Below, in pieces: positions 7,923 to 40,676 of a stretch of DNA of 64,000 nt. The stretch's first letter is position 1. Each line of letters starts with the position of its first letter. The notes beneath the pieces are model-generated. The model worked only from the letters and a program-made list of their open reading frames with translations, was not told the DNA's origin and did no database searches. The stretch comes from a candidate division FCPU426 bacterium (GTDB lineage: Bacteria; Oederibacteriota; Muellerivitia; Muellerivitales; Muellerivitaceae), in NCBI GenBank assembly GCA_963796105.1, contig CAWCKJ010000003.1:544001-608000 (forward strand), in the 5' to 3' direction. The translations under genes were made by a program, and so were the position numbers.

Positions 7923-7932
7923 CGGACGGATC

Positions 7933-8621: not shown

Positions 8622-11600
8622 TCATCGAATGATCAGAACCTTCAGGGATCTCTTGGTCCTCGCTCCGTTGACCGGATTTTTCCAATCCAATACCACCAGA
8701 TAAAGGCCCGATGCCGACTCCTGCCCCTTTTGGTTTCGAGTGTCCCATACCGCGCTCCCCTTCACCAAAGGCAAGTCCCGGATCAATTCGCCGCTCAGGC
8801 TGTAAACCTTGGCCTCCGCTTGCACCGCGAGGGCAAAGCCGGAGGAAGTTGCTGAAAGCTGGAGCATTCCCCCGCCCCTCAATAGATTTGGTTTGGCCGT
8901 GAAGAGAACCGGCTCCGCGGAAATTCCCCCTATATAGGCGTCCCTGGAAAGAATGATGGGATTCCCCCCCGCGATGGTTTCCTGGAGGACAAAGTGATAA
9001 TACCCGTTCGGGACCGTTTGTCCGTTCGGGCCCAAGCCATTCCATACCGCTACAGCCTGCCCGTTCACGGTCAGGGTGACTGATCCGCCTTTCCCGTTAT
9101 TATCGGAAATGAAATTAGATACATCCAGGACCAAGACTTCGCCCGCCTGTAAAACAGTATTTCCGCAAAGGGAGGCAACCTGCTCCCCTCTTTCGTCGTA
9201 AATCCCAATCGCTTGCAAACAACCTGAGACTATCGGGGTAGGGGTAACTGAATAGGTAGGAGTTAGGGTGACTTGCGGTGAGTTTGTTGAAGAGGGAGAA
9301 GGAGTTGAAGAATAAGACGGAGTGGAAGTCCATGAAAATATCGGGGTATTGGTTGAGGTTGAAGTCAGCGTCAGCGTGAGAGTGGGTGAAAAAGCTTGAG
9401 TCGCGGAAGGCGTGTTTGTCGGGGTGAAAGTCGGGGTGTCAGTCAAAGCGGGGGTTAGGAATGTGGCGGTAGATGTTAACGACGGCGAATGGGTCATCGT
9501 GGACGTGGCGCTTAACGTTGAAGTGGAAGTCCAGGTCGGGGTGTAGGAGGGTGTCTGCGTAAGAGTCTCCGTAAAAGTCATAGTGGGTGATTCCGAATAG
9601 GTGGAAGTCGCAGTCGGCGAGTCAGTAAGCGTACCGGTGGGGGTATAGGTGGAAGAATAGGTAGGCGTCAGGAGCGTGGAGGTAGGAGTTAAAGACGGTG
9701 TATTCGTGGCCATTAAAGTCATGGTGCTGGTGTAAGTTGAAGAAAAAGTCTCCGTTTCAGTCGGTGTATTCGCGGGCGTAACAGTCAATGTATTTGTGAT
9801 GGTGGAAGTTGGGGTATAGGTAGGAGAAGCTGTCATCGTCCATGTGGATGTATCAGTCGGGGTATATGTCAAAGTGGGCGTTGCCGAAACGGTCATCGTG
9901 TTCGTGGGCGTTTCGGAAGGGGAGTTAGTAACCGTAAGTGTGGGAGTAGGGCTTGAGGTGGGCGTATAGGTCGATGTAGGCGTCGAAGTAGCCGAATCTG
10001 TGGGGGTTTCCGTGGACGTATAGGTCAGCGTCAAGGTTAGGGTGGGCGTATTTGAATGTGAGGAGGTTGGCGTGTCAGTGAATGAAGAAGTGGGAGTCAC
10101 GGAGGGTGAATTCGTTAAGGTGAAAGTTGGGGTTAAAGTCGGGGAATAAGAGGCGGTGTACGTTGGAGTTGAGGTCGGAGTAGGCGAAAAGGTTTGGGTT
10201 TCAGTCAAAGTAAAAGAAGGGGTTGAAGATGGGGTACTTGAGAATGTCGGGGTGGAAGTATCAGTAAAGGATTGAGTGGAGGTTAAAGAAGGCGTATTCG
10301 TCGGGGTCAAAGTAATTGTCAATGTCGGAGTGGGAGTTTTAGTCGGGGATAGCGTTGACGTAGCCGAAAGGGTTGGGGTGTTCGTGGCTGTAGCTGATGG
10401 CGTAGGAGTCCATGTGACCGTGTTGGTCAAAGTCGGGGTAGCTGAATCCGTCGGCGTGCTTGTAAATGTCAGAGTGAAAGTCATGGTAAGGGAAGGTGTC
10501 GGGGTGGGACTCCCGGTAAAACTAGCTGTCGGCGTTGGGGTGGAGGAATAGGTCGATGTGGACGTGAAAGTTTTCGTCGGAGTGTTAGTCGGGGTCCCCG
10601 TGGGAGTGGACGTGGCGCTGAAGGTGGATGTCGGCGAGGAGGTTTTAGTCGGGGATAGTGTAGGCGTCAACGAAACCGTTGGGGTTCCTGTCGAGGTCGG
10701 GCTCGGCGACGGCGAGGCGGTCCGGGACGGAGTGGGAGTCCCTGTGGTGCTCGGGGTGTTGGAGGGAGTCGGGGTGCAGGCGGACAAGAGAGTGGTCACT
10801 GCGTTCGAGATCACGCTCAATTTGGGGGTCGAGCTGTCCGCCTCGGCCGTGTTGATCAGGCTGATCCCGCAAATATTGACAATTCCTACCGCCGTCAGGG
10901 CGCCCGAGGCCCCGCCCGAGAGGTTCCCCAGGTTCCAGACGATCCTTTGCCCCGTTACGGCTGGCGCGCCGCTGGAGGAGGCGTAACTCAGTCCCGCCGG
11001 CAGGGTGTCCGTGACGGTCACGTTGTAGGAGAGAGGATATTTCACGATGGAAACGTTGTCAAAACGGATGGTGCTTCCGTTATTGGCCTGGAGCCCTCCC
11101 TGACCCGTGGGAATGGCAAAGGCGGTCGTGCTGGAGACGGCCAGGGTCCCGTTGATCCATAAATTCAAGGTCACAGGGCCGGTTCCGAGGGCCTCGAACT
11201 TGGCGGTAAACCATGTGTTCACGGCGATGGCCGCGCTTCCGGTAGCCAAACCGGTATAGTTGCCCGTGGCGACGTTCCAATAGCCCAGCGCCACGTTGTT
11301 CGTATTGCCCACCCCGATCAGGGTCTGGTAGTTCGAGCCGTTGACCGTGCCTGTGCCGTTGAACCTGAACAGGAGGACCCCGTTCCGGGAACCGCCGTTG
11401 GCGATTTTCATGTCGGCCTGGATATTGCCGTCCCCCACCTGGCTCGCACATCCGTTGAGAAGGTAAGGATAGGTGTTGGCCGCAGCCACGCCTTGGAGGG
11501 CCTGGGTGCCGACCGAGGCCGGGCCGTTGTCAGCCACCACAGTCCAGGCCCCTCCCGAACTGACCCAGCCGGAGGGAAAACTTCCCAAGACATCCGCCTC

Positions 11601-11813
11601 GAAATTGTCCGAGCAGAGGGCATTGGTGTTGGAGTTTAAATAGGAAAGGACATAGGTGACAGAGTCCCCCGGCGAGGCGCTCGGGGCATTGGCGGTTTTG
11701 GCAAGGGTAAGCTGGGCCAGGGCGTCCGAAGGCGCAAAAAGCAGGGTGAGACCAGCCAATAGGGTCCCATGGAATAGGAGGAAGATGGGATTGGTTTTTT
11801 GCCTTCTTCTCAT
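8622..11813 (-). CDS. Large exported protein: split DUF11-like Ig domain around a lectin-like beta-sandwich, ~500-aa Thr/Ser/Pro stalk, two C-terminal FlgD-Ig/T9SS-CTD-like domains
   Basis: LTLAKTA..ASPGDSVTYVL and NVTVTDTLPAGLSY; TPT repeats; KVYSLSGELIRDL..WD..ASGLYLVV..KVLIIR. Confidence 0.75.
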   Translation of the reverse strand: MRRRQKTNPIFLLFHGTLLAGLTLLFAPSDALAQLTLAKTANAPSASPGDSVTYVLSYLNSNTNALCSDNFEADVLGSFPSGWVSSGGAWTVVADNGPASVGTQALQGVAAANTYPYLLNGCASQVGDGNIQADMKIANGGSRNGVLLFRFNGTGTVNGSNYQTLIGVGNTNNVALGYWNVATGNYTGLATGSAAIAVNTWFTAKFEALGTGPVTLNLWINGTLAVSSTTAFAIPTGQGGLQANNGSTIRFDNVSIVKYPLSYNVTVTDTLPAGLSYASSSGAPAVTGQRIVWNLGNLSGGASGALTAVGIVNICGISLINTAEADSSTPKLSVISNAVTTLLSACTPTPSNTPSTTGTPTPSRTASPSPSPTSTGTPTVSLTPTLSPTKTSSPTSTFSATSTPTGTPTNTPTKTFTSTSTYSSTPTPTASFTGSPTPTPSLTMTFTLTFTSTPTDSATPTLTNTVTWTPTPSATATNTPTLSATSTLSPTKTPTPTLTITLTPTNTPSLTSTQSFTDTSTPTFSSTPSSTPSFTLTETQTFSPTPTSTPTYTASYSPTLTPTFTLTNSPSVTPTSSFTDTPTSSHSNTPTLTLTLTYTSTETPTDSATSTPTSTYTPTSSPTPTLTVTNSPSETPTNTMTVSATPTLTYTPTDTSTWTMTASPTYTPTSTITNTLTVTPANTPTETETFSSTYTSTMTLMATNTPSLTPTSTLLTPTYSSTYTPTGTLTDSPTATSTYSESPTMTFTETLTQTPSYTPTWTSTSTLSATSTMTHSPSLTSTATFLTPALTDTPTFTPTNTPSATQAFSPTLTLTLTSTSTNTPIFSWTSTPSYSSTPSPSSTNSPQVTLTPTYSVTPTPIVSGCLQAIGIYDERGEQVASLCGNTVLQAGEVLVLDVSNFISDNNGKGGSVTLTVNGQAVAVWNGLGPNGQTVPNGYYHFVLQETIAGGNPIILSRDAYIGGISAEPVLFTAKPNLLRGGGMLQLSATSSGFALAVQAEAKVYSLSGELIRDLPLVKGSAVWDTRNQKGQESASGLYLVVLDWKNPVNGARTKRSLKVLIIR

Positions 11814-13387: not shown

Positions 13388-15157
13388 TCAACGCTCTTCG
13401 TCCTTCAACAGCGAGTCGATCATGTCCCCGGTGAGGAATTCCGTGTCGCCCTTCTCCTCGGTTGGAGTCAAGCCGGGAGCCGGAGCCGACGCCGCTGGTA
13501 TGGGCAATGAACTCGAGACCGGGGCGGTTTTCTTCGTGTCTTTCCCCGTCTTGGGCAGGTCCGGTGCGATTGCCGCAACTGTGGATATCACCCTTCCCTT
13601 CGCGGCCTGGACGAGCTTATCGAGTTCATCCTTGGTGAGGCCGCTCGTCGCGGAAACTTTCATCTGCTGGGTCTGGCCGGTTGCGACGTTCTTGGCCGTG
13701 ACATTGACGATGCCGTTGGAATCGATGGCGAAAGTGACCTCCACCTGGTTGGTCCCGGCCGGGGCCGGGGGCAGTCCCACGAAGGAGAAAAAGCCCAAAG
13801 TCTTGTTGTTGCTGGCGATCTTTTCCTCGCCCTGGAGGACCTTGACGTTCACGGAGGTCTGCATATCCTTCACGGTGGAATAAAGCTTGCTCATGCGGGT
13901 CGGCACGGTGGTGTTGCGGGGTATGATGACGGAACAGGTCCCTCCCAAAGTCTCCACGCCGAGCGAAAGGGGGGTGACGTCCAGAAGGAGGGCGTTGCGG
14001 ATGTTTCCGTTGATGATGCCGGCTTGGATGGAAGCCCCCAGGGCCACCGCCTCGTCCGGGTTGACCTTGACGTTGGGTTCCTTGTTGAAGAAGCGCTTCA
14101 CCACGTCGCGAACCTTGGGAACCCGGGTCATGCCACCCACCAAGAGGACCTCGTTCAGATCCTTGGGATTCAAGTTGGCGTCCTTCAAGGCCCTTTTGCA
14201 GGGCTCCATTGTCCTCTCGATCAAGGGATTGACCATGGTCTCGAATTCTTCCCTCGATAGGTTGTAGGCCAGGTTCACGAAACTGCCTTCCTTTTTCGAG
14301 ATGAAAGGCAGGTTGATGGTCGTGGTGGCGGCGGTGGAGAGGTCGCATTTAGCCTTTTCCGCGGCTTCCCTCAGGCGCTGGAGTGCCACGGGCTCCTGGC
14401 GCAGGTCGATCCCGGTCTCCTCGATGAACTTGCCCAGGACCCACTCCATGAGGATGTGGTCAAAATCATCCCCGCCCAAATGCGTATCCCCGGACGTGGA
14501 AAGCACCCTGTAAAGGCCGTTAAGGAGCTCCAGCACCGTCACGTCCAGGGTTCCACCGCCCAGGTCGTAAACCACGATCTTCTGGTTTTTCTTCGTGTCA
14601 AAATCGTAGGACAATGCCGCTGCGGTAGGCTCGTTGATGATCCTCAAAATGTCGTAGCCCGCTATTTTTCCCGCGTCCTTGGTCGCCTGGCGCTGGGAAT
14701 CGTTAAAATAGGCGGGCACCGTGACGACGGCTTGAGAGATCCTCTCCCCGAGGCGCGCCTCGGCGTCCTGCTTGATTTTCCGGAGCACGATCGCGGAAAT
14801 TTCCTCGGGGGATTTGACCGTGTCTCCCAAGCTCACACGGATATCCCCGTTCTCGGATTCCACCACGTCATAGGAAACCAGGCTCTTGTCCCGTCTGACC
14901 TCCTCGTCATTGGCTTTGCGCCCGATGAACCGCTTGATGGAGGAAACCGTCCCCTTGGGATTGGTGATGGCCTGGTGTTTCGCGTCCAAACCCACGAGCC
15001 AATTCTTCTCGGCCGTCAAGGCCACGATGGAGGGAGTGGTATGGTAGCCGTCGGAGTTGGGAATCACCGTGGGTTCACCGCCGTTCAAATAGGCGACGCA
15101 GGAATTGGTGGTCCCGAGATCGATCCCAATCGCGATTTCCTTGCTTTTATCGGCCAT
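13388..15157 (-). CDS. DnaK/Hsp70 paralog with truncated C-terminal lid
   Basis: GIDLGTTNS, TVPAYFND, EPTAAA, DLGGGT, LLLDVTPLSLG; low-complexity tail after SGLTKDELDKLVQAA. Confidence 0.9.
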   Translation of the reverse strand: MADKSKEIAIGIDLGTTNSCVAYLNGGEPTVIPNSDGYHTTPSIVALTAEKNWLVGLDAKHQAITNPKGTVSSIKRFIGRKANDEEVRRDKSLVSYDVVESENGDIRVSLGDTVKSPEEISAIVLRKIKQDAEARLGERISQAVVTVPAYFNDSQRQATKDAGKIAGYDILRIINEPTAAALSYDFDTKKNQKIVVYDLGGGTLDVTVLELLNGLYRVLSTSGDTHLGGDDFDHILMEWVLGKFIEETGIDLRQEPVALQRLREAAEKAKCDLSTAATTTINLPFISKKEGSFVNLAYNLSREEFETMVNPLIERTMEPCKRALKDANLNPKDLNEVLLVGGMTRVPKVRDVVKRFFNKEPNVKVNPDEAVALGASIQAGIINGNIRNALLLDVTPLSLGVETLGGTCSVIIPRNTTVPTRMSKLYSTVKDMQTSVNVKVLQGEEKIASNNKTLGFFSFVGLPPAPAGTNQVEVTFAIDSNGIVNVTAKNVATGQTQQMKVSATSGLTKDELDKLVQAAKGRVISTVAAIAPDLPKTGKDTKKTAPVSSSLPIPAASAPAPGLTPTEEKGDTEFLTGDMIDSLLKDEER

Positions 15158-15206
15158 GTTTCACCTTATTAATGGACTTTAAGCTTTATTTTAGTCTTCA
15201 GGGGCT

Positions 15207-15773
15207 TCAAACTTTTTTTCCATAAACATAACCCATCGCCACACTCAAAGTTTTCTTAGCTTCATAATCATCAGGGTTTAATTTCAAAACCCTCTCGACA
15301 CAAGCCACCGAATCCTTGAAATTCCCCTGGCATCCGTACAAAATTCCCAGATTATAGTGGGAGTTGACGAAGCCTGGCACCAGTTTGATGGCCGCAACCC
15401 ACTCGTGCTGGGCCTGGTTCCAATCGTCCTTTTCCTCGAAAAAAGCCACCCCTTTTTTGAAGTAATCCTCCGCCTCAATCTCCTCTTTCGTCTTGATGAT
15501 CTTGAGAAGCCCGCGTTTCACCCCGACCATATCCCCGGTTTCGCGCCGGATGTCGTTTCGGACCTGAAAATTATACGCTTCCCTTTTTTCCGGGTCACTT
15601 AACACGTTGTAGGCCGTCACGATTTCCATGGTTTGCTCGATGGCCCATTCCAGCCGGTCAGGGTTCCGGTCCGGGTGGTTTTCGAAAATGAGGTGTTTAT
15701 ATGTCTCCTGTAATTGCTTGGGGTCCAAGGGCGGATAAAGCTTGAATATCTCGTAATAATTTTTTTTGATCAT
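15207..15773 (-). CDS. J-domain protein with C-terminal TPR repeats
   Basis: NYYEIF...HPDRNP...AYNVLSDPEKREAY J-domain; TPR-like HYNLGILY. Confidence 0.85.
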   Translation of the reverse strand: MIKKNYYEIFKLYPPLDPKQLQETYKHLIFENHPDRNPDRLEWAIEQTMEIVTAYNVLSDPEKREAYNFQVRNDIRRETGDMVGVKRGLLKIIKTKEEIEAEDYFKKGVAFFEEKDDWNQAQHEWVAAIKLVPGFVNSHYNLGILYGCQGNFKDSVACVERVLKLNPDDYEAKKTLSVAMGYVYGKKV

Positions 15774-19106: not shown

Positions 19107-19358
19107 GGGCGACTCTATGAGTCGCCACTCGTGGTTTTCACTGCCCTCTTCCGAAGGAAGATGGGTGGCCGGGAATCACGCCCCGGCCAAGTACACGGCT
19201 TGTGCAGATCCTTCAACAAAAACACAAAGAGATCGGCGCGATGCCAACCTCTTTAAACGCTTTTTGGAGGGTTGGCATGTGCAGATCCCCAATAAAAACA
19301 TAATGAGATCGGCACCAAACCAGGCGGTCAAGCTAAAGCGCCCCCTCTTTGGAGAAGC

Positions 19359-20291
19359 TCAATACCAGAATAACAGGCCAAAAAGATAGGAATTGGCTAT
19401 GAAATCGGAACTGATCTGGGAGGGCCTCCAGGCGAATCCCAACTCATACTCGAGCCTGCCGAGGTTGTAGCGCAAGCCAGCTCCCAAGGAAAGTCCCCCC
19501 TGAAGATTGCCCTGCTCGGTGATCCTGTACCCGGCCCGCAGGGCCAGGATGCTCCTGTGCCAGTACTCCACCCCCATGGAAGCCTCGTTCCCCTCGTCGC
19601 GCACGTTCAATCCCTCCACGCTCACCAGCAGGGTGGAGGCGGGAGTAACTATAAGGGGCCTGGATACCCCGATTCGAAAAGTCAAGGGAAGGGGGTCCTG
19701 AGCCTGGGAGTCGGGCTGGTATTGGACCGGCGGCCCAACATTTTGAACGACCGCCGCGAAGTCCGTCCCGAAATACTGGAGTTTGATCCCGACATCGATA
19801 GCCTGGGTGAATGCCGTCTTTTCTCCCAGGGCGGAATAAAGGATCTTGAGAGCCCCGCCCAGGGAAAGTTTCCCGAATTGCTGGGAATCCGCCACCGTCA
19901 AGAGAACGTCATAGGCGTTCACGGGGGCGTCCGTCGCGAGGGTATTTTGAATCGTCGGCATGTGGCGGTAAATCAGCTGGCCGCCGAGATTACCGTATTT
20001 CTGGGTCGGGACCGCAACGCTGAGGGATTCCGTCCCAACCCCCGCGTAACCCTCCATGTGGTCCAATCCCAGGCTGTATTTCGAGACGCGGGCCAACCCC
20101 GCGGGGTTGTATCCGATTACGTACACATCGTCCCCGAACGCCGAATAGGTCCCTCCCAAAGCGGCGGGGCGAACCCCTACGGGAAGAGTCAGCAAATCCG
20201 CTCCGCTGGTTCCGGGATCCAAGGCCCGTCCTAGGGAAGGCTCCCAGAAATAAGCCGTTAGAGCGGTTATCAGGAAAACAAGTTTCAACAT
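19359..20291 (-). CDS. PorV/PorQ-family outer-membrane barrel protein
   Basis: GADLLTLPVGVRPAALGGTYSAFGDD...YNPAGLA motif; LALRAGY; aromatic C-terminus; start placed at MLKLVF. Confidence 0.8.
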   Translation of the reverse strand: MLKLVFLITALTAYFWEPSLGRALDPGTSGADLLTLPVGVRPAALGGTYSAFGDDVYVIGYNPAGLARVSKYSLGLDHMEGYAGVGTESLSVAVPTQKYGNLGGQLIYRHMPTIQNTLATDAPVNAYDVLLTVADSQQFGKLSLGGALKILYSALGEKTAFTQAIDVGIKLQYFGTDFAAVVQNVGPPVQYQPDSQAQDPLPLTFRIGVSRPLIVTPASTLLVSVEGLNVRDEGNEASMGVEYWHRSILALRAGYRITEQGNLQGGLSLGAGLRYNLGRLEYELGFAWRPSQISSDFIANSYLFGLLFWY

Positions 20292-20499
20292 TTTAATCCA
20301 TCTGCCTCTCTTCGGAATTTCGAGAAACCTAGGCGGGCGATGATGAAAAACCGAGCGCAAAAGATTCTCCCTCATTTTTATGGTTTTCCACCAGGCGGAA
20401 ACTTTTATTAAACTGATCGGACGGATTTTCCAACCAGCAGGGCCCGCCATCCCTCTCCCCTGCCCCTTAAAAAGAGATTCTTTTAAGAACCATCAGGTT

Positions 20500-22035
20500 T
20501 TACAGTTTCACTTTTAATCCGCACTTGAATACCGCCCCCAAAATCATATCCGGGTCTGGCCAGGAATAGGGCTTTTGGCCGAGATTTTCTCCCGCCAGGG
20601 AAATTCCCAACTCCCGGGACCACTGGTATTCAACTCCGGCCGAGCAAAGAAACCCAACATTTTGTATTTCCCGGCCCTCGAACCAGAATTTAGTTTTTTG
20701 AAAGGTCTCGATGACAAACCGCAAACTCGAGTCGAAAAACCAGAAACTGGACGGGCTTTGTAATTCCTTGATTTCAAACTCCACCCGCGACCGGTTTAAA
20801 ACCCTGTAAAAAAGCCCTGAGGGATCCCATTCCGCCGAAAAGGAACCGCCTGGGTATTCCTGGGACCCCAAACACTGGAGGATATATTGGAACGTGGTGC
20901 TCCAGTCGGATTTTTCCTGGACGCGGATTCCCAAATCGGTTTGTTGAATCAAGGTTGAATCAGTCGGCGCCTCGTTCCGTGAATAATCCCCGATGAAAGT
21001 AAAGGATCCCTGGGTCTTCCGGGCCCCCAGGACGGCGCTGAATTGGGAAGGGGCGGAATCCGGGAAATCAAGCCGGAAGGCTAGGTCCAGGTTGGCCATC
21101 CCGAGAGCGTCGACGAATTCCGTGTTCTGGATGAAGCCGCTCGCCCGGGCTGGGCCTTGGGCTCCGTGGGCGGGTGAATCCAGGAACCCTCCCATGCCGA
21201 TTTGGCTCTCGAAGAGTCCCCCGGCGTTAAAATGATACCTCAGGAAGCCTCCTCCCTCCTGAAGGGTCTCATCCCCCAGCTTAGCCGCCTGGACAAAGGG
21301 CTTCAATTGAAGCGATTGGAAATCCGCGGTTTTTAAAACCCAGTCGCTGGAGAAAAGGTACCAATAGTCCTTTGAGGATGTTTGGGTTCCAAGGAATCCA
21401 CTTTGCAGGACGCTTGAGCCGTCGTCGAGCCATTGGCGCTTGGAAACAACGGTAAAACTTCCCTTGTCTGAAAAATCGGAGTTCAGGGACGCGTCCCGGA
21501 CCGAGGCGTCGAGGTAAAAATCCGGTTGATGATCATGAAGCCATCCGCCTCCCGAGGGGCCGGAACCTCCCCAGGCGGAAGCCGAAGTTTCATCCGCCGC
21601 GGGGGAAAGAGGGGCCTGGATCTGCAGAAGGCCCGCTCCTGTGTTTTTTCCCCACCAGGCCGCCGCAGGGAAATTCAGCCACTCGGCTGTTCCGGCCGTT
21701 GGCATGCCGTTCAGCAGATCCATCGAGGCGAAGGGGCAGGGAATGTCCTCGAAGGCCTGGCCCGGGGCGTAGTTTTGAAGGCCCCCGGGACCAAGGCTTA
21801 TGCCGTGAGTCCATCCCGCGTGACTCGAGAGGGTTCCCCCGAGGGTATTCCAGGAAGGTTCAGTATTGAGAAGGGAGATGTCATGCGCAATATCATCCAA
21901 GTAATCGGAGGAGCCTGGGACAAGGCAGACCCGCCCCTGATCAAAAGGGCGTCCCAGATCCTCCTCCACCTGGGCGAAAGAGAATGGAGGCGCTAGGAGA
22001 GGGATAAGAAGAGAGATCCATCGAAGGGCTTTCAA
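20500..22035 (-). CDS. Putative outer-membrane barrel, distantly TonB-dependent-receptor-like
   Basis: Signal peptide; AAWWG..AGLLQI plug-like segment; AGENL...GLKVKL terminal strand. Confidence 0.45.
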   Translation of the reverse strand: MKALRWISLLIPLLAPPFSFAQVEEDLGRPFDQGRVCLVPGSSDYLDDIAHDISLLNTEPSWNTLGGTLSSHAGWTHGISLGPGGLQNYAPGQAFEDIPCPFASMDLLNGMPTAGTAEWLNFPAAAWWGKNTGAGLLQIQAPLSPAADETSASAWGGSGPSGGGWLHDHQPDFYLDASVRDASLNSDFSDKGSFTVVSKRQWLDDGSSVLQSGFLGTQTSSKDYWYLFSSDWVLKTADFQSLQLKPFVQAAKLGDETLQEGGGFLRYHFNAGGLFESQIGMGGFLDSPAHGAQGPARASGFIQNTEFVDALGMANLDLAFRLDFPDSAPSQFSAVLGARKTQGSFTFIGDYSRNEAPTDSTLIQQTDLGIRVQEKSDWSTTFQYILQCLGSQEYPGGSFSAEWDPSGLFYRVLNRSRVEFEIKELQSPSSFWFFDSSLRFVIETFQKTKFWFEGREIQNVGFLCSAGVEYQWSRELGISLAGENLGQKPYSWPDPDMILGAVFKCGLKVKL

Positions 22036-22129
22036 TCAGGCTTCCTATGAAACAGATATTAAAAGGATTGGGAGGGCCCGGCTCCCTCCGGCGAATATCC
22101 AACGATGGGAAAAAATCCCGGATACAAAG

Positions 22130-22206
<77 letters not shown>

Positions 22207-22237
22207 TTAAATACGATCCTGCCTGCCCAATAATAAC

Positions 22238-24100
22238 TCAATTTCGGCTCAATTTCTCGATCGACTGCAGCTTCACCATTGCTTTCGCTATGTTATTCTT
22301 GGCGCTGATATATTCCGGGTCTTCTTTCAGGCATTCCTTCCATGTCGCGATAGCCTCATGAATCTTGCCGTTGATGTAGAGGTTGACCCCATCATAATAA
22401 AGGGATTTGACTTTTTCCGCGTCGACCTTTTGCTGGGACTGCTGGCCCGTCATGCGCTTGACATAGTCGTTGGCTTTGCTGTTGTTGGGATCGATCGCCA
22501 AAACCTGTTGGAATTTCTCCTGCGCCTGGTTTTTGCTCCCGGAACCCTCGAGGGAAACACCCTCCTCCATCAAGCCGTTGACCTTATTGCGGATCTCCTT
22601 CCGGACCAGGAACAGGGTCTCGAGGGCCTTTGGACTGGAAGGGTCGATCTTGGATGCTACTTGGAGTGATTTCAAGGCGCTCTGCAATTGCCCTGCGTTA
22701 TAGCTCTTGAGACCCTGGCTGTAATACTTGTCAAACTCGGACTTTTGTTCCTTTTTCACGCTTTTCAAGCGCTCCTTGACGGCATGGTTCTTGGAGCTGA
22801 TCTTGGCTGCCTTGGAGTATTTTTGAATGGCCCCGGAATAGTCTTGTCCTTGGTGCAGCTCATCCCCTTCCTCCAGGAGCACCCGGATCTGATCCTGGGA
22901 CTTGGATTTGACCTTGCGGACAGCCTCGAGAGCTTTCTCGTTCTCGGGATCCATGACCAGGACCGTGTTCCACTCCGAAAGGGCCTTCAGGTTGTTGCCC
23001 TTTTGAAGATAGGCCTTCCCCGCTGCCAAATGTTTCTGGACCTCGGTCTGAAGCTTGGCGCGGGCGTCCGCGATGTAGTCCTGGGCCTGCTTGTTATCCG
23101 GCTGGAACTTGAGGACCGCCTGGCATTCCGCGATAGCCTCGGTGTACTGGTTGTTCACCAGGTCGTTCGTGGCGTTGGACATGTGGGCGTTATTGGCCGC
23201 GTCGATGGCGTTGCCCCTGCCGACGGAGGCGTCCGAGTCCTTCGGGTTGATCTTGAAGGCCTCCCCGAAAGCCTCGGCGGCCTTGTCGTACTCGCTGTTA
23301 TCGTAATAGGCGACCGCCTGATTGTAATAAGTCTCCGAGTCGTCCGGATTGGCCTTCTCCGATTTCTCATAGCAATCGATGGCCTCGGGGAATTTACCCA
23401 GGTTGTAATAGGAAAAACCGAGGAATTTATAGACCCTCGCGTCTTTTTTAATCCCCAGGGCCGAGCGCCATGCCGATACCGCCTTGGGGTAATCCTTCAT
23501 CTGGAAATAAGCCACCCCGAGATTTTGGAACGCGTCGAAATTCCTCGGGTCGGCCGAGGTCACCTTCCTGAGGGATTCCACCACCTGCGGGTATTTTTTC
23601 TGGTCCATGTAAATTTTGGACAAGTCCCCGTTGGCGTTCACCTGGACTTCCTTGACCTTTGGGAAAGCCGCAGAATAATTCTTCAGGGCGTTCTCCGCGT
23701 TGTCGTATTGGTTCAGCTGGATATAGGCCTTTCCCAGCAGCAGGTTGGCATTCGGATTGGCGAGATTGAGCTTCAGCACGGCGCTCAGGTGGTTGACCGC
23801 GTCGGCGTATTTTTTGTCGAAATAGGCGGAGATGCCCTCGGAGCTCTCGAGAAGCTCTTTGGCCTGCTGGTCTTTCGGGTTGAGCTGAAGGTACTTCTGG
23901 AACTCCGGGATCGCCTGCGCAAATTGCGAGGTCTTGAAGAAAGCAACGCCCAAATTGTAATGGGAGGTCGCGGAGTTCGGGTTCGCCTTGACCGCATTGA
24001 GGTAAGCCTGGATATTGGCGTCATCCTGCGCCGCCAGGGCCAACCCGGTCAAGAATGCCGTCACCCATAAAAAAAGCCCGACGAGGGCAGAAATTTTCAT
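22238..24100 (-). CDS. Exported multi-TPR protein
   Basis: Signal peptide MKISALVGLF...ALA; TPR repeats over the full length. Confidence 0.85.
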   Translation of the reverse strand: MKISALVGLFLWVTAFLTGLALAAQDDANIQAYLNAVKANPNSATSHYNLGVAFFKTSQFAQAIPEFQKYLQLNPKDQQAKELLESSEGISAYFDKKYADAVNHLSAVLKLNLANPNANLLLGKAYIQLNQYDNAENALKNYSAAFPKVKEVQVNANGDLSKIYMDQKKYPQVVESLRKVTSADPRNFDAFQNLGVAYFQMKDYPKAVSAWRSALGIKKDARVYKFLGFSYYNLGKFPEAIDCYEKSEKANPDDSETYYNQAVAYYDNSEYDKAAEAFGEAFKINPKDSDASVGRGNAIDAANNAHMSNATNDLVNNQYTEAIAECQAVLKFQPDNKQAQDYIADARAKLQTEVQKHLAAGKAYLQKGNNLKALSEWNTVLVMDPENEKALEAVRKVKSKSQDQIRVLLEEGDELHQGQDYSGAIQKYSKAAKISSKNHAVKERLKSVKKEQKSEFDKYYSQGLKSYNAGQLQSALKSLQVASKIDPSSPKALETLFLVRKEIRNKVNGLMEEGVSLEGSGSKNQAQEKFQQVLAIDPNNSKANDYVKRMTGQQSQQKVDAEKVKSLYYDGVNLYINGKIHEAIATWKECLKEDPEYISAKNNIAKAMVKLQSIEKLSRN

Positions 24101-24122
24101 TAGTTCCTCGAAAAAGGAAAAA

Positions 24123-25337
24123 TCAAAGTCCGTTGCTGGCCACGTCCAGGACCAACAGCTCATCCACCTTTTTCCCGTTCCTCTCGACCTGGCGGCAGCG
24201 GATCATGGTTCCATCGGTGGACCAAGCGAGTTCGGCAGTATAGTCAAGCTGCTGAATTGTTTTCAACCAGGTTTTGTTCGTCCCGTTGGAATTGATCAGC
24301 CAAACCTTGCCCTCGTAGACATAGGCGATCTTGTTCCCCGCGGGATGATAGACTGGGTGAAGCCCCAAGGAATTGCTCCGGGTGAAAAAGAGGGTTTGGG
24401 AGTTCATTTTATTGATGCCGGTTTTCTCCAGTTTCCTCAAACCGCGTACCGTCTGGCGGTAGACCAGTTCCTGGTTGTCCTGGGACCAGTTTGGTAAATC
24501 CGCCCCGAATGTTTGTGGAATCAGGGTGAAGCTGACTTTTCCCATCTTCTTCTCGTTTATTTTTCCCAGGTAGAGATACTTGACCCGGCTGGGGGTGATT
24601 CGGTGGGAGACAATCAGATTCCGGTCGGGCGATAAAACACCGGCCGGATCGGGGGGCGAATCCGGCGGGAAATCCCCCTCATAACTCTTATTGAAAGGAA
24701 TCTCGTTCTTAAGCATAATGAGGACCGCGTCATCCGCCCCGATGTTGAGGGCCCGGCGTGCGCGGTCCATGAGGGATTCCACCTTCGCCCGGCGGTCGGG
24801 GGAAATCATGGCGGAGGGATATGACTGAAAAATCGCCTGGGCCTGGTCCTGGGCGCCCTTGTAATTCTTCTGGGTGTAATAAGCCGTGGCTGATTGATAC
24901 TGGGCATCCACCAAAAACTCGATCGCGTCGTGGATGCGCGCGTTGTCCAGGTAGAGCTTCAAGGCCTTTTGATAGTATTCGGATGTTTTATCCGGGTTCT
25001 TCAATTTATCCCGGTAAAGCCCTGCCGTGTCCAGCAACGCGTGAAGCGCCTCGTCGGAATCGGGATAATCGGAGATGACTTTCTCGTACTCATCCAGGGC
25101 GATATCGTACTCGGAAAGGGCCTCGAAGTTCTTCGCGATCCGGTAATGGATATGGGCAGCCAACTCCGTGGCGGAATGGGCTTTCAAATAATCCTTGTAG
25201 GCCTGGATGGCCTGCCGGCTCATTCCGGAACGGTCCATCTGGGAGGCGTTCTCATAGGAACCGCCGAAAGATCCGCACCCCGCCCCGCCCAAAGAGATGA
25301 TTATGACGAGCAGGAAAAAAAGTTTAAGTTTGGACAA
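24123..25337 (-). CDS. Lipoprotein with N-terminal TPRs and C-terminal TolB/PD40-like beta-propeller
   Basis: Lipobox-like GAGC; TPR/BamD-like helices; LSPDR, PNWSQD, PVYHPAG, AWSTDG repeats. Confidence 0.75.
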   Translation of the reverse strand: MSKLKLFFLLVIIISLGGAGCGSFGGSYENASQMDRSGMSRQAIQAYKDYLKAHSATELAAHIHYRIAKNFEALSEYDIALDEYEKVISDYPDSDEALHALLDTAGLYRDKLKNPDKTSEYYQKALKLYLDNARIHDAIEFLVDAQYQSATAYYTQKNYKGAQDQAQAIFQSYPSAMISPDRRAKVESLMDRARRALNIGADDAVLIMLKNEIPFNKSYEGDFPPDSPPDPAGVLSPDRNLIVSHRITPSRVKYLYLGKINEKKMGKVSFTLIPQTFGADLPNWSQDNQELVYRQTVRGLRKLEKTGINKMNSQTLFFTRSNSLGLHPVYHPAGNKIAYVYEGKVWLINSNGTNKTWLKTIQQLDYTAELAWSTDGTMIRCRQVERNGKKVDELLVLDVASNGL

Positions 25338-25353
25338 TTTCAGGCCTTTCCGC

Positions 25354-27105
25354 TTATTTGGTGATGAGGACGATATCCACGCGCCGGTTCTTGAAAGCCG
25401 TCCATCCCAGGCCGGAGGCGTCCAACGGCGCCGAATCCCCGTGCCCCCGGGAGTAAAGATTATCGGGCGAAATCCCGCCCTTTTCCACCAGATATCTCAG
25501 GACCGTATCGGCCCGGTTCTGCGAGATCTGGAGAGCCTCGGTTTCCGATCCTTCAGCATAGGCGTGGCCCTCGATATAAACTTTCGAATTCGGGTATTTG
25601 CGGATCAGTTTGACCACCTGGCTCAGGTAATCCACCCCTCCGGGGATCAAGCGGGCGCTTTTCTCCGCGAAAGGAAGGCTCGGGACCCTCAATACGCCCG
25701 GGGACCCCTCGGGCCTGAGGCCTGCGGGCAGGCTCGGCGCGGGATATTCCCGGGCCGGGGCCGAAGCGACGGGAACCTCTGGAACGGAGGCTTCCTGGAC
25801 TTGGACATGGGCTGATTTGAAAATGGACTCGCTGGCCACCATGCGCCGGCCCTGGTTGTCCTCCGTGCGGAAATGGTAATCGGCGTAAATCCCTCCCGCC
25901 ACAGTTTTTCCGAAATTATCCTTCCCGTCCCAGGCGATCTGTTTGGGGGGAACGCCCTTGCCGCTGTAGGAACGGATGATATTGCCTCTAGGATCGGTGA
26001 TATCCAGGGTCCAATTCTTGATATCGGTCCTGGCCGTGGCCTTCAATTCGAAGGTCGCCTGCTTCAAAGACCCAGTCTTGATGTCCTCGAACTGGGGTTG
26101 AACCTCCAATGGCTGCTCCGGTTTCACGGCGAAGGAACTTTCCTGGGGCTCGGTTCCAAATCTATAAGTTATGGAAAATCTTTGGGTTTCACCCAGTATT
26201 CCGTAGGGGACGTAGGCGTAATCGATCTCAAACCCGGAGTATCTCAAGCCCGCCCCAAAGGAAGCGCCTGTTAATCCGCCCAGGTCCTGGCTGAAAGAGT
26301 TAAAACTATACCCCGCCCGGATCGCGCCTGAGAGGGTCTTGGAACCCATCCAGATCTCGCCGCCGGTGTGAAGAATGGTGCTGTTGTCCTCGGGTTTTTC
26401 CAAATCCGCCGCGATCAAGAAATGCGTCGGTTTTTCCGGTTGGAACCGGTAAGCCAAGCCAGCCCGGAAATCCAGGGGAAGCTTCTGCTGGGAGTTGTTC
26501 TGGGAGAAGGCGGTCATTTGACCCAAGTTTTGCATGGATAAACCAAGCGTCCAGTCCCTGGAGGTGGTGTAAAGAAGTGCGCCCGCGTCCAGGGCCTCGC
26601 CGGAAGCGCTAGAAGTCACCAAACTGCTGTTGATGTACTTGGCGCCGATGCCGAGTGATAAATGGTTCCCAAAAGACTGCCCATAGCCGATGGCGACCGC
26701 CACGTCATTGGCGCTTCCGGGAGTCGCAGAGGGGTTATTGGTGGAATTAAAAGAGGGGACGAAATCCAGGAAAGCGCTCATTCCCAGGACGCTCCCCTGC
26801 CTCACCGGAAGGGCCAAGCCCGCAAACTCGTAATCGGTGCCTTGAAAATATGAGGTATGAAGCAGGTTGATCTCAGGATATTCCAACTGGGCCAGGCCAG
26901 CCGTGTTCCAGTAGGTCGTGCTGATGTCGTCGGCGACGGCCGTGAAAGCACCTCCCATGCCGGCCCCGCGGATTCCAGCGGGAATTTGTAGGAACTGGGA
27001 GCTGGACGTGCCGATGCTGTCCGGATGGGAGGGAATCGGAATTAGAAAGACGAAAAGGGCGAAACCGGCTAAAAACCTCTTATTTGATTGGGCTTTACGC
27101 AACAT
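25354..27105 (-). CDS. PorV-family barrel fused to FlgD-like Ig and OmpA_C peptidoglycan-binding domains
   Basis: FLQIPAGIRGAGMGGAFTAVADD..YWNTAGLA; WTLDI..WDGKD..GIY; IEGHA..SQNRADTV..NRRVDI. Confidence 0.8.
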   Translation of the reverse strand: MLRKAQSNKRFLAGFALFVFLIPIPSHPDSIGTSSSQFLQIPAGIRGAGMGGAFTAVADDISTTYWNTAGLAQLEYPEINLLHTSYFQGTDYEFAGLALPVRQGSVLGMSAFLDFVPSFNSTNNPSATPGSANDVAVAIGYGQSFGNHLSLGIGAKYINSSLVTSSASGEALDAGALLYTTSRDWTLGLSMQNLGQMTAFSQNNSQQKLPLDFRAGLAYRFQPEKPTHFLIAADLEKPEDNSTILHTGGEIWMGSKTLSGAIRAGYSFNSFSQDLGGLTGASFGAGLRYSGFEIDYAYVPYGILGETQRFSITYRFGTEPQESSFAVKPEQPLEVQPQFEDIKTGSLKQATFELKATARTDIKNWTLDITDPRGNIIRSYSGKGVPPKQIAWDGKDNFGKTVAGGIYADYHFRTEDNQGRRMVASESIFKSAHVQVQEASVPEVPVASAPAREYPAPSLPAGLRPEGSPGVLRVPSLPFAEKSARLIPGGVDYLSQVVKLIRKYPNSKVYIEGHAYAEGSETEALQISQNRADTVLRYLVEKGGISPDNLYSRGHGDSAPLDASGLGWTAFKNRRVDIVLITK

Positions 27106-27383
27106 GGGGCCTTTGCTTGAACGAAGAAGGTTTTTTCAATTATATCATGGCAAATCCTTATCCTGTCAAAACAAACAATCCATGGGTTTCACAGGACCAA
27201 AGCCTCAAAGAGATCATGGCCGGGCATTTCTTCTTTTATAAATACAAAGTCCCTCCCTAAGTGCCCGCAAAAAAACATGACAGGCTTCGCTTGGGGCCGT
27301 TGTAGAAGGGAAATTGCTTGATATAATGCGTGGTCTTTCAAGCCGGTTCGCTGGCACCCAACAACTTTCGGAGGCCTTATTTT

Positions 27384-28838
27384 ATGATGCGTCAATTGAG
27401 GGATAAAAAAACGATGCAGGTGATTTTATGGCTTCTCATCGCCGCTTTCGTCATCGGATTTCTCTTTCTGGCTGGCGGGAGATGGATGATGAAGGATGAC
27501 ACCCGGAACCTGGTCGCCCAAGTGGGCGAAAGAAACATCACTTACGCGGAGTTCGACCAGGCCTACAAACCGGCCTCGGAAAGGCTTTACAGCGCCAAGG
27601 AAGCGGAGCCTTCCTCCGGGGAAGTCGCCGCCCTCAAGAAACAAGTCCTGGAGCGCCTGATCGACAACGCCATCCTGGAAAAGACCGCCAAGGACATGGG
27701 AATCAATGTGTCCATCGAAGAAATCGCGGCGAGCATCCAACGGCAGCCCTATTTCACCGGCGATGACGGCAAGTTCGACCGCAACCGCTATATGAAGGTG
27801 CTTCAAGACAACCAGCTGACCCCGGATGAGTTCGAGGCAGCCCAGGGCCAGCAGATCCTCCTGCAGAAAATCCACGCCATCCTCGATGACAGCATGCTTT
27901 ACACCTCTGACGACTTGGCCGAGTACGGGAACTTGTTGAACCGGCAGCTCAAGGCCAGCTATGTCGTATTGGCCGAGAAGAATTTCGAGAAAGACATCCC
28001 CATGAAGGATGGGGATCTCGAAGAATATTACGAGAACCACCGCAACGAGTACGACCATCCGGAACGCGCGAAAGTCCGCCACATCCTGCTGGCTTTGCAG
28101 GGCGGTTCCCCCCTGGACGAGGAAAAAATAAAGAAGGATCTCGATGGGTACCGGGACCAGATCCTGAAAGGAAAGGCCACGTTCGGCGAGCTCGCGGCGA
28201 AATACTCCCAGGACAGCGGCTCGAAAAACAAAGGTGGAGAGCTGGGTTGGGTTCCCCGCGGGGCGGCCATCAAGGAATTCGAGGACGCCGTCTTCAACTT
28301 GAAGAAAGGCGAAATCACGAAGCCTTTCAAGACGCCCTACGGCTACCACATCGCCCAGCTGGAGGATTACGAGAAGGAGTACAAGAGCACTTTCGCGGAT
28401 ATGCGCAAGAAAATCGCCGATTCCTATAGAAGGGAAAAGACGATGCAGAAAATGCTCTCGGTATCCGAGAAACTAACCGACAAGCTTAACGCGAACGAGA
28501 GCGTCGAGAAAGCCGGCCGGGAAATGGGCCTTCCGGCGCAGACTTCGGCCTGGTTTGACCGCAGTTCCGGAATCCCGAAAATCAAGGACTCCAAAAACGC
28601 GGCCGACTCCCTGGCGAGCCTGTACTTGAACCAGTGGAAAGGCCCCTTGGCTATCGGAACCGACGAGTACTTTTTCCAGGTCGTGGACATCAAGCCGAGC
28701 GGCAAGACCGCCGTCCAAAGCGCGGGGGACCTTTCAGACATCGCCAAGCATTACCTGTCGGACCGGGAATCGGCTTGGATCAAGGATTTCCTGGAATCCC
28801 AGCGCAAAAGCCTGAAGGTTAGGACTTTTAACCTTTAA
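27384..28838 (+). CDS. PpiD/SurA-type membrane-anchored peptidyl-prolyl isomerase
   Basis: N-terminal TM, SurA_N-like region, parvulin motifs VRHIL, SQDSGSKNKGGELGW, TPYGYHI. Confidence 0.85.
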   Translation: MMRQLRDKKTMQVILWLLIAAFVIGFLFLAGGRWMMKDDTRNLVAQVGERNITYAEFDQAYKPASERLYSAKEAEPSSGEVAALKKQVLERLIDNAILEKTAKDMGINVSIEEIAASIQRQPYFTGDDGKFDRNRYMKVLQDNQLTPDEFEAAQGQQILLQKIHAILDDSMLYTSDDLAEYGNLLNRQLKASYVVLAEKNFEKDIPMKDGDLEEYYENHRNEYDHPERAKVRHILLALQGGSPLDEEKIKKDLDGYRDQILKGKATFGELAAKYSQDSGSKNKGGELGWVPRGAAIKEFEDAVFNLKKGEITKPFKTPYGYHIAQLEDYEKEYKSTFADMRKKIADSYRREKTMQKMLSVSEKLTDKLNANESVEKAGREMGLPAQTSAWFDRSSGIPKIKDSKNAADSLASLYLNQWKGPLAIGTDEYFFQVVDIKPSGKTAVQSAGDLSDIAKHYLSDRESAWIKDFLESQRKSLKVRTFNL

Positions 28839-37951: not shown

Positions 37952-39922
37952 TCAACGGGATTTCGAGTCCTTCAGCTTCGCTTGAAAAGGGGATGCGGGA
38001 AGGCCGTTATTGCCGTTCAGGTTGCAAAGCGGGTTATCCCCCCAGGCGTAACGGATGGCTTTCGGGTCAGCCACTTGGTCGTTCCAGACCACCACGGTAT
38101 TACCCTTGATTTCCGCCTGGGCCCATTTGAATTTGCCGTCCCGCCCCGCGACGGCGAAGCCTTTCAAGGAGCCGGCCCCGCTTGATTTCAAACCCTCCTC
38201 GGCGTTTTTAAATGTGACGCGGATACGGTTTCCTTCAGCCATGGCGGATTCGTAAAGAGGGCTCAAATAGGGGCCCTTCATACCATAGGCTTTTTCCAAT
38301 GCAACCAAGGCCAATCGGCGCCCCACCTCGGTTTTATTCTTCGGGTGAATGTCATGGTCCTCGCCTAGGTCGATGAGAACAGCCATCCCCGTGTTGGGGA
38401 CCGAAAGGGTTCTGCTTTGTTGTTCCCTCAGGTCCGCCCAGTCGCTTTCGCTTGGTAGGTCCTTGGTATCCATGAAGCCCGGGAGCTGGGCGAATATAAA
38501 AGGCATGTCCGGTTCGCGCCACTCCTTCCTCCATCCACCGATCAGGGATGCCAGAAGTCCATGGTACTCCTTCGCCCTGGAAGTGTTTTGCTCACCCTGG
38601 TACCAGATCACGCCCCGAATGGGATAGGAAGTCAGCGGATGAATCATCCCGTCATAAAGCTGGGAGGGCATCTCCGCCATGGGCTTTGGATCGATCCCAA
38701 AGTAGATGTTTTGGATCGCCCCGGGTGTGAATGGCCGGGCTTTCCCCCATCCCGATTGTTTCAAGGAGGACAAGGGAATCCGGTAAAGCTTCCATTTATT
38801 TCCCGTCTCAAAGGCCTGCGTCCTGTAATTGTCCCAGTCGGAAATGGTCGGCTGGGAAAGGAACAGAATATATTTCCCGCTTCCCCTGCCGTAAAACTCG
38901 ATGGCCTCGAAATCGGTCAAGTCGAGGGTTTTCCCATCCTTTGCTAAAGGCGTCGTTATCCAACCCCAGGCATCCGGAAGAAGCTTGCCGGTCATATGCC
39001 CCAAGGGTCCTGGAACCGGGCCAGGAAGATTCTCAGTTGAGATGTCTATTTCCGAACCATCTTTTACGCCGGTGGACCAATATCCCGGGATCGTCTTTTC
39101 CTGGCGGCTTAAGGCGTTTCCATTGAATTGAACCGTCACGGGGGATCGGGTTGAATCACGCGGACGGAAACGAAGTCCCGACAGCCAGAAATCCGCGTCA
39201 AAACTGCCCTGTGCCCACATCTTTTTTTCCCAAGAGGGTTTTGCCTCCCATCTTTTCAAAGAGTTCTTGCAGGCAGGCCCGGTCTGGAAAGTTTTTTCAG
39301 GGATCCAGCTTTCAATATAAGTTCCGCCCCAGCAACTCTGGATCAGCCCCACCGGCACGTTTAATTTTTTACGAAGGTTGAGCCCGAAATGATAAGCCAC
39401 CGCGGAAAAATCCTTGATCGTGTCGGGTGTGCAAACCTTCCACTCGCCCTGGGGGTCATCCAGGGGTTTTGTGGAATTCCTGAGCGATTGTTTGAATATC
39501 CGGATCTTGGAATCAGTGGCTTGCGGCAGGGTTTTGGCCGAATCATGGGTATTAGACATCGGGAACTCCATGTTGGATTGTCCGGCCCCCACCCAGACTT
39601 CCCCCACCAGCACATCCTCGATTTTAGCCGTGGCGGAACCCTGGATGGTCAACTCATAGGGTCCACCGGCCCGAAGAGAAGCCAATTTAACTTTCCATTT
39701 TCCCTTCGAGTCCGCCTGGGTCGAGCCCGACTCGCCCGCCAGGGTGACGACAACCTTTTGGCCCGGATTGTCCTTACCCCACAACACCCCTGGTTTTCCC
39801 GCCTGGATCACCATGTGGTCCCCGATCAGGTACGGTAATACCAAAGCCGGCCATCCAGGCGCAGCGATCGAGCATAAAAAAAGGGATTCCAACACAGTTA
39901 GAATAAAACGCCTTAGGCCCAT
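37952..39922 (-). CDS. Sialate O-acetylesterase (SASA/DUF303) family esterase with inserted CBM11/CIA30-like domain
   Basis: GEVWVGAGQSNM, WGGT, WYQGEQN, DIHPKNK; insert DLTDFEAIEFYGRG...WKLYRIPLSSL. Confidence 0.85.
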   Translation of the reverse strand: MGLRRFILTVLESLFLCSIAAPGWPALVLPYLIGDHMVIQAGKPGVLWGKDNPGQKVVVTLAGESGSTQADSKGKWKVKLASLRAGGPYELTIQGSATAKIEDVLVGEVWVGAGQSNMEFPMSNTHDSAKTLPQATDSKIRIFKQSLRNSTKPLDDPQGEWKVCTPDTIKDFSAVAYHFGLNLRKKLNVPVGLIQSCWGGTYIESWIPEKTFQTGPACKNSLKRWEAKPSWEKKMWAQGSFDADFWLSGLRFRPRDSTRSPVTVQFNGNALSRQEKTIPGYWSTGVKDGSEIDISTENLPGPVPGPLGHMTGKLLPDAWGWITTPLAKDGKTLDLTDFEAIEFYGRGSGKYILFLSQPTISDWDNYRTQAFETGNKWKLYRIPLSSLKQSGWGKARPFTPGAIQNIYFGIDPKPMAEMPSQLYDGMIHPLTSYPIRGVIWYQGEQNTSRAKEYHGLLASLIGGWRKEWREPDMPFIFAQLPGFMDTKDLPSESDWADLREQQSRTLSVPNTGMAVLIDLGEDHDIHPKNKTEVGRRLALVALEKAYGMKGPYLSPLYESAMAEGNRIRVTFKNAEEGLKSSGAGSLKGFAVAGRDGKFKWAQAEIKGNTVVVWNDQVADPKAIRYAWGDNPLCNLNGNNGLPASPFQAKLKDSKSR

Positions 39923-40550: not shown

Positions 40551-40569
40551 CACATCTTTTCGAAAACCC

Positions 40570-40606: not shown

Positions 40607-40676
40607 TCGGGTGAAGATTTTCCAGGAACTACGCCGGAAAAAGCGCCCGATCTCTCAATTAAAAAGGAGAAACCGA

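Follow-up and report, generated by a model that had tools for sequence, protein, structure and literature searches.

Here we describe a three-gene module (the triad, or module A) on the minus strand of a 64,000-nucleotide window, the whole stretch of DNA that was analysed (G000:C3:544001-608000 of the genome under study, G000, 4.98 Mb and 96.8% complete). The triad encodes a PorV/PorQ-family outer-membrane barrel fused to immunoglobulin-like (Ig) and OmpA_C-like domains, a predicted lipoprotein and an exported tetratricopeptide repeat (TPR) protein, and we take it for a dispensable accessory module, so far undescribed, of a reduced system akin to the T9SS (type IX secretion system). What we observe is a set of domains, a conserved gene order, genomic ties to sprA and to genes of cargo proteins bearing the type IX C-terminal domain (CTD), and an altered OmpA pocket. 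The simplest reading that accounts together for the PorV-family assignment, for the links to cargo and to sprA and for the periplasmic components is that module A is a static carrier of a T9SS variant, similar to PorP-PorE and built from other pieces, to which we would give a probability of about 0.5. The three genes are the following.

25354..27105, minus strand: module A gene 1, the PorV-Ig-OmpA fusion of 583 amino acids (aa), with a PorV/PorQ-family barrel (aa 34-316), a FlgD/CTD-like Ig domain (aa ~329-429) plus an OmpA_C-like domain with an altered pocket (aa ~474-583)
24123..25337, minus strand: module A gene 2, a predicted lipoprotein of 404 aa (Cys22) whose TPR region is CpoB/BamD-like and whose part-propeller is TolB-like
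22238..24100, minus strand: module A gene 3, an exported all-TPR protein of ~620 aa, single copy, with a conserved C-terminus and no CTD (the open reading frame spans 22238-24163; alignment places the true start at ~24100)

The fusion protein scores 162 bits against the PorV family model (PorV_fam, NF033709; cut-off 90), with FlgD_ig at aa 348-407 and OmpA at aa 479-566, and a second, barrel-only family member encoded in the adjoining module B (the second PorV, see below) scores 127 bits. With regard to PorV and PorQ themselves (6H3I chain F; NF033709, NF033710, NF033711), both barrels pass the family model but miss the equivalog cut-offs (64 and 39 of 250 bits for PorV, 105 and 78 of 220 for PorQ), and both match the PorV of Flavobacterium johnsoniae (6H3I_F) at E 2.5e-13 for the fusion and 2.1e-8 for the second PorV. 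That the two barrels are instead FadL-type importers of hydrophobic compounds with periplasmic adaptors, module B then being a nutrient-uptake pair, seems to us very unlikely, even though both match UPF0164 weakly and carry an N-terminal NPA/NTA hatch motif, fatty-acid genes lie just upstream, the 22-strand barrel of module B has a transporter fold, and FadL-like proteins of Treponema have periplasmic TPR extensions (PMC8407342). Neither focal barrel matches the Toluene_X/FadL Pfam family (PF03349) at E<=0.01, the F. johnsoniae PorV is the sole PDB sequence match of the second PorV at E<=1, FadL is absent among the best 60 of the 77 PDB matches of the fusion, the hatch motif is also present in PorV itself, and fab genes are neighbours of the locus in family f1 alone. 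The FadL-like UPF0164 proteins of Treponema pallidum (PMC8407342) do have weak UPF0164 matches and periplasmic C-terminal domains in common with the family described here, which, unlike them, is found together with SprA and a set of 123 CTD proteins, frequently in association with cargo genes.

These other type IX parts were found across the genome. A SprA-like protein of 2017 aa, encoded ~350 kb from the locus, reaches 207.6 bits against TIGR04189 (cut-off 200), a 17-row SprA profile matches PDB 6H3I/6H3J (6H3I_A) at E 5e-42, and SprA-like genes occur in 58 of the 61 genomes searched. As for cargo, TIGR04183 yields 48 matches in G000, 47 of them C-terminal, and a hidden Markov model (HMM) built on the genome finds 123 C-terminal CTD proteins for none in a reversed-sequence control. 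The carriers are numerous too: 18 proteins match NF033709 (16 above cut-off), most with C-terminal fusions, which differs from PorV/PorQ as known elsewhere, and since 11 of these 18 paralogues have a CTD gene no more than 1 kb upstream, PorV-family barrels pair with cargo in this genome. Other components were not found or scored low. No PorU-type C25 peptidase, the expected partner of PorV, was found in G000 or in seven family members, in a search that was positive in 10 of 30 genomes; GldK matches stay at 46-63 bits for a cut-off of 350; no PorE (NF052230) exceeds its cut-off in the five genomes searched, G000 included; and no recognisable motor was found, GldM and GldN being matched in 0 of 30 genomes, without any positive control responding, and GldL not having been searched for. 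The searches for SprA and PorU that the initial annotation had suggested turned out differently, the first finding its target and the second none.

As to the organism, the Atlas cluster closest to the fusion protein consists mostly of Candidatus Goldiibacteriota (9 labelled of 70 members), and Goldbacteria have been equated with FCPU426, a cluster whose neighbours are Firestonebacteria and Elusimicrobia (PMC7031533). Because the placement rests on the Atlas taxa of this cluster, we infer that the lineage probably lies outside Bacteroidota, in agreement with the earlier impression that the organism does not look like one of them. SprA, CTD cargo and PorV carriers occur throughout a phylum that these taxa point to as Goldbacteria/FCPU426, when a 2024 paper has T9SS genes absent outside the FCB superphylum (PMC11285876), and our literature search, of incomplete journal coverage, found no description of the triad or of a T9SS in Goldbacteria/FCPU426.

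In the same phylum, an alignment of the lipoprotein matched 60 of 99 genomes, or 57 once the partial matches in G035, G050 and G056 are removed, and the order fusion-lipoprotein-TPR protein is found in 24 genomes of the same family and in 26 of the 29 genomes of other families with the lipoprotein. This order persists at about 20-35% identity and in at least four different surroundings. In a 24-genome clade (f8/f11/f13/f17-f23), sprA lies on the same strand, 3.2-5.9 kb downstream of the TPR gene, in 13 full triads, which makes 13 of the 16 informative loci; the other loci of the clade comprise one lone lipoprotein gene with sprA 3.6 kb further on, two unlinked loci and eight contigs that end first. 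The gene directly upstream of the triad bears a CTD in 8 of 8 loci tested in this sprA-linked clade and in two genomes of genus g13, where the triad stands at a new place; no upstream CTD was seen in the f9 loci, in the f15 locus (which ends at a contig edge) or in G017. The initial annotation, which had read the whole locus as a PorV-centred envelope locus resembling a rearranged T9SS module, had named three findings that would speak against it, namely barrels grouping with FadL, a gene order not conserved and a genome lacking CTD-bearing proteins, and none of the three holds: the barrels belong to the PorV/PorQ family, the order is intact in relatives (the 24 family and 26 other-family genomes above) and CTD proteins number 123.

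Two observations on SprA itself may be added. The sprA gene of G000 (G000:C3:212289-218342; L090:12290-18340) has skp, lpxD/C/A/I and lptF/G in its vicinity, the gene of a 1618-aa CTD protein comes after it, and the SprA-like proteins of the phylum carry N-terminal fibronectin type III domains. Just before sprA, the linked-triad clade has a conserved protein of ~220 aa with a single membrane span (L116:11315-11974, L117:12634-13290, L118:12100-12759) and a weak DUF3108-like match, of which no homologue was found in G000.

The OmpA pocket of the triad has changed. In PorE, Asp576, Asn584 and Arg591 bind meso-diaminopimelic acid (PMC7192894), and Asp576 and Asn584 are required for secretion, the WD40 domain likely binding PorP (PMC12773672). 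In the focal protein, Tyr487 stands for the Asp and Ala495 for the Asn, Arg502 is retained and Glu489 is near-invariant. Among the 67 close orthologues with a readable motif (out of 72 listed), the Asp is kept in 10, the Asn in 8, and a Glu two residues past the Asp site is found in 62; among 26 distant orthologues, the corresponding counts are 0, 23 and 26 (one control and one triad sequence having no readable motif in this comparison). The Asp has thus been lost in 57/67 close and 26/26 distant orthologues, Arg502 being invariant, and a GHxxxEG signature is common to all three clades of triad barrels (62/67 close and 26/26 distant) versus 0/7 non-triad paralogues. The six correctly parsed non-triad PorV-Ig-OmpA proteins, including a cargo-linked paralogue of G000, all have the Asp, and five of them the Asn; one further control paralogue has a degenerate pocket. 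As this change is both specific to the triad and conserved, the comparison of sequences suggests a different ligand or partner, not decay. The OmpA domain is no nearer to PorE than to other OmpA domains, 6TOP coming among the last of the 60 PDB matches listed for the fusion (the best 60 of 77). The idea of the initial annotation that the peptidoglycan anchor has moved onto PorV does not sit well with this pocket, in which the Asp that PorE needs is missing.

PorV-Ig-OmpA fusions are not peculiar to this locus, G000 having three of them. In one paralogue (G000:C4:94315-96522; L092:8319-10523) the tail is TPR-like and the Asp/Asn/Arg pocket is intact, and its gene lies directly behind that of an 836-aa CTD protein; by analogy, it would be a cleaner one-protein counterpart of PorP-PorE than the focal gene.

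The lipoprotein, whose Cys22 is nearly invariant in a 26-row alignment, was modelled with AlphaFold2 (AF2) at a pLDDT (predicted local distance difference test) of 92 as a nine-helix TPR region and a propeller part of four PD40-type repeats, followed by the C-terminal end, with neither a carboxypeptidase regulatory domain (CRD) nor an OmpA domain. Pfam PD40 gives no score on this copy and does score on two distant orthologues. A search of genome contigs with the single lipoprotein sequence gave no match, and the alignment-based search gave 17 loci. The TPR fold is matched by YbgF (Z 15.8, root-mean-square deviation (rmsd) 2.3, 107 residues aligned) and the propeller by TolB-like propellers (Z 14.8, rmsd 2.9, 172 aligned). 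In the profiles of the family, YbgF/CpoB and TolB models match 24 of 24 members and the PorE model one (E 7.5e-4).

PorE itself is a lipoprotein with the architecture TPR-WD40 (five blades)-CRD-OmpA_C (PMC7192894), and the initial annotation had proposed that this domain set is split here. Taken literally, the TPR-WD40 half would have become the lipoprotein and the OmpA half would have joined PorV as an ordinary peptidoglycan anchor, which we consider highly improbable. The domain types are the same (TPR, propeller, OmpA_C), Arg502 is invariant, the Asn is kept in 23/26 distant orthologues, and fusions of PorP/SprF with OmpA do exist as sequence clusters in Bacteroidota and Zixibacteria. However, the PorE model matches only the single lipoprotein just mentioned and, on the barrel protein, only the OmpA part (37 bits, cut-off 600), the four PD40-type repeats do not correspond to a five-bladed propeller, the CRD is lacking, the Asp is absent in all the distant and most close orthologues, and the genomes searched, G000 included, have no PorE above cut-off. 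What survives of the likeness to PorE is a functional analogy with PorP-PorE. An origin by the splitting of PorE is not supported, the lipoprotein being CpoB/TolB-like and the OmpA domain neither PorE-specific nor in possession of its Asp.

The same CpoB- and TolB-like folds raise a different alternative, in which the triad would be an envelope tether similar to Tol-Pal and without a role in cargo handling: the OmpA_C domain would act as Pal, the lipoprotein as a CpoB-TolB hybrid that binds OmpA_C and competes with peptidoglycan, and the TPR protein as a scaffold. We regard this as unlikely, though it is the main rival to the static carrier. In its favour are the 24/24 family matches and the fold matches to YbgF and TolB-like propellers, and the facts that the Pal cut-off is reached in 0/99 genomes with positive controls, that the lipoprotein is lacking in 14 of the 16 genomes in which the Pal model matches strongly, that G000 has only five OmpA domains, none of them in a small lipoprotein, and that the locus stands amid housekeeping genes. 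Both systems have repeats of the TolB type, a TPR region similar to CpoB and an OmpA_C fold similar to Pal, whereas the propeller of the triad is partial, the TolB N-terminal domain is missing and OmpA_C sits on the barrel rather than on a lipoprotein; no tolQRA or other tol genes are found in the window. Against a tether also stand families f2, f4, f12 and f16, which have neither the lipoprotein nor a strong Pal-model match, the identity of the barrel, whose other family members pair with cargo here, and the position of the triad behind a CTD gene in two separate lineages; moreover, the counts come from related genomes and are not independent of each other.

Coming back to the static carrier, the close comparison is with PorP-PorE-PG1035 of Porphyromonas gingivalis and with the cargo/SprF-like/PorE-like operons of F. 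johnsoniae (PMC9143113, PMC12618676, PMC12773672). In Flavobacterium, the carrier barrel docks on SprA, its outer loops bind the CTD and the motor pulls the barrel off (PMC10994853), and operons of cargo, shuttle and PorE give a static, wall-anchored display (PMC9143113, PMC12618676). The triad shares with PorP-PorE a FadL-fold T9SS carrier barrel, a periplasmic TPR/propeller lipoprotein, an OmpA_C domain and, in some lineages, a position behind a CTD cargo gene. It differs in that its barrel is of the PorV/PorQ rather than the PorP/SprF family, in that OmpA_C is carried by the barrel behind one to three Ig domains, in that the lipoprotein resembles CpoB/TolB, has four repeats and lacks a CRD, in that there is an extra TPR protein of 620 aa, in that the pocket Asp is replaced, and in that the cargo CTDs score as type A (TIGR04183). 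By this comparison, the barrel would attach at SprA's lateral opening, and its outer loops would receive a cargo tagged with a CTD; the Ig and OmpA_C domains at its C-terminal end would project into the periplasm, and the lipoprotein and TPR protein would bind those domains or the periplasmic face of the barrel and so fix the carrier. The OmpA_C domain may either grip peptidoglycan through its changed pocket, with Arg and Glu kept and the Asp lost, or mainly bind the TolB-like half-propeller of the lipoprotein. If so, modules combining a carrier and an anchor in the manner of PorP-PorE may have been assembled more than once from different parts. The triad is a conserved, single-copy candidate part of such a system, and its three proteins and single residue change (the Asp lost and a Glu gained) are well delimited.

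Several observations weigh against a static carrier. The link to sprA is seen in a single related clade, where it may reflect synteny by inheritance: as the interval between triad and sprA holds genes for LacI, an O-antigen ligase, a family 9 glycosyltransferase (GT9), the 220-aa membrane protein and sometimes a methyl-accepting chemotaxis protein (MCP), the linkage may be that of a single inherited block. Most family f1 loci and those of f3, f9 and f15 have no sprA or cargo link, and at the focal locus neither PorV has a CTD gene within 3.5 kb, sprA itself being remote. The lipoprotein was not found in 39 of the 99 phylum genomes, with partial matches in three more, and SprA is present in those lipoprotein-lacking genomes that were checked, so that module A is not essential for export. 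The triad barrels form three supported clades, for which a single origin is neither rejected nor shown (p-AU 0.219). Asp and Asn, both needed in PorE (PMC12773672), occur together in only 1/67 close orthologues, and a single SprA sequence used alone gave no PDB match.

A more ambitious possibility, which we consider improbable, is that the triad forms a periplasmic handle on a motor-less type IX translocon and replaces PorE and the SprE/hub, a TonB/Tol-type motor or the cell wall holding or pulling carrier-cargo complexes off SprA. If true, type IX export would have a second coupling architecture, one that lies beyond the FCB group. On the subject of motors, a cluster located after rpsA (G000:C3:119462-127047; L172:7463-15048) encodes a 1056-aa TPR protein, a 611-aa receptor-like barrel and a TonB-like protein, along with open reading frames that look ExbB/TolQ-like and ExbD-like on sequence inspection; this ExbB/ExbD/TonB-like cluster is a candidate energiser for a system without GldLM. 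Separately, five further genomes (G099-G103; loci L083-L086 and L089, with PorV-like matches) encode C25/PorU-type proteins and have no GldM/GldN match, and T9SS-like sets without a motor may be wider than this phylum, as far as their gene content suggests.

The remainder of the locus can now be described. Every gene of the initial annotation was found, in minus-strand transcription order PorV-Ig-OmpA, lipoprotein, TPR protein, tRNA-Gly, 22-strand barrel and second PorV, then rplU and obg, with ppiD divergent.

27384..28838, plus strand: PpiD-type chaperone (SurA_N and rotamase), a divergent housekeeping neighbour
22132..22206, minus strand: tRNA-Gly(CCC), at the boundary of modules A and B, present in 18 of 20 related loci
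22071..22089, minus strand: GC-rich hairpin 3' of the tRNA, a possible terminator on weak evidence (25 such sites versus 16.5 expected from shuffling)
20500..22035, minus strand: module B gene 1, a barrel of the TonB-dependent-transporter fold, 511 aa (490 aa mature), with a plug and 22 strands
19359..20291, minus strand: module B gene 2, the second PorV, a barrel-only PorV/PorQ-family protein of ~310 aa (the open reading frame spans 19359-20450; true start ~20291)
19225..19255, minus strand: terminator-like hairpin in the interval between the second PorV and rplU

The five genes and the tRNA are intact in 12 of the 20 loci first fetched from relatives, and gene order exceeds chance. The losses follow the modules: only the 22-strand barrel is missing in G001, the fusion and lipoprotein are missing in G002 and G018 with the TPR protein retained, and all three triad genes are missing in G013 and G031, where the 22-strand barrel, the second PorV and SprA remain; the PorV-Ig-OmpA barrel and the lipoprotein are thus jointly missing in G002, G013, G018 and G031. 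In G017, G023 and G027, the triad is located apart from the barrel pair. Since modules A and B are lost independently, they are two modules and not one system, and the earlier view of six genes as one PorV-centred T9SS-like unit has to be abandoned. Splits of the lipoprotein, 22-strand barrel or fusion reading frame occur in single genomes (L067:7211-8432, L070:11380-12914, L122:4472-6834, L152:1147-3271), for which assembly error and decay cannot be told apart.

Other candidate members were set aside. PpiD is a neighbour because it stays when module A is lost, and it is not adjacent in other families. The barrel at 7918-8595 and the 1063-aa CTD protein at 8622-11813 show no conserved linkage, the barrel and the N-terminal 700 aa of the CTD protein having no match in the fetched loci, few of which extend that far; the barrel, first described as PorT-like, scores only 13 bits against NF052311 (E 0.038, cut-off 125) and matches best a TDE1717-type protein (E 4e-12). 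With an HMM of the C-terminus of the TPR protein, one PorV-TPR fusion ranks 6th among 45 TPR proteins, which is too weak to argue from a fusion.

Module B is a separate neighbour confined to one order, and the PorV next to its 22-strand barrel is the sole link of that barrel to type IX export. The 22-strand barrel is found in 26 of 30 family members and in the one sister-family genome, the remaining 29 genomes giving one weak match, to a BtuB-like receptor; the second PorV has orthologue-level matches in 24 of 30 family members and one sister-family genome, with identities of 63-86% among family members and of 49% for the sister family. The 22-strand barrel has no Pfam or NCBIfam match here, and no relevant Pfam match (that is, to TonB-dependent transporters) in 21 members, its Atlas neighbours being Plug and Porin_10 clusters. 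Its AF2 model (pLDDT 87, predicted TM score (pTM) 0.86) shows a plug and 22 strands with short loops, and the closest structures are BtuB and Cir (Foldseek TM 0.74-0.77, identity 10-12%), BtuB aligning with Z 32.9 and rmsd 2.9 over 450 residues. The plug and the 22 strands are common to BtuB/Cir and this barrel, whose loops are by comparison very short. At the TonB-box position a strand aligns, model residue 13 with BtuB residue 6, the sequence being atypical (GxVIxLP), and G000 has four TonB_C proteins and 12 plug domains. The protein would most likely be a TonB-gated channel. Among type IX components, PorF may likewise have a plug of the type found in TonB-dependent transporters. PorF, a barrel in the outer membrane, has no known function (PMC7463736).

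The window holds a few other features. At 353-5957 there are two PilZ genes and genes for an Fn3 protein and for an AAA ATPase that resembles ExeA but stays under the TIGR03015 cut-off, and an IS21-type element (IstA integrase core and IstB ATPase) occupies 50984-53470. An exported sialate O-acetylesterase-like protein and a glycoside hydrolase family 2 (GH2) beta-galactosidase (GalA, 1096 bits) are encoded at 37955-44059. Finally, an Hsp70 and a DnaJ-TPR protein are encoded at 13388-15773, in the proB/nadD interval, with 70-90% identity within the family.

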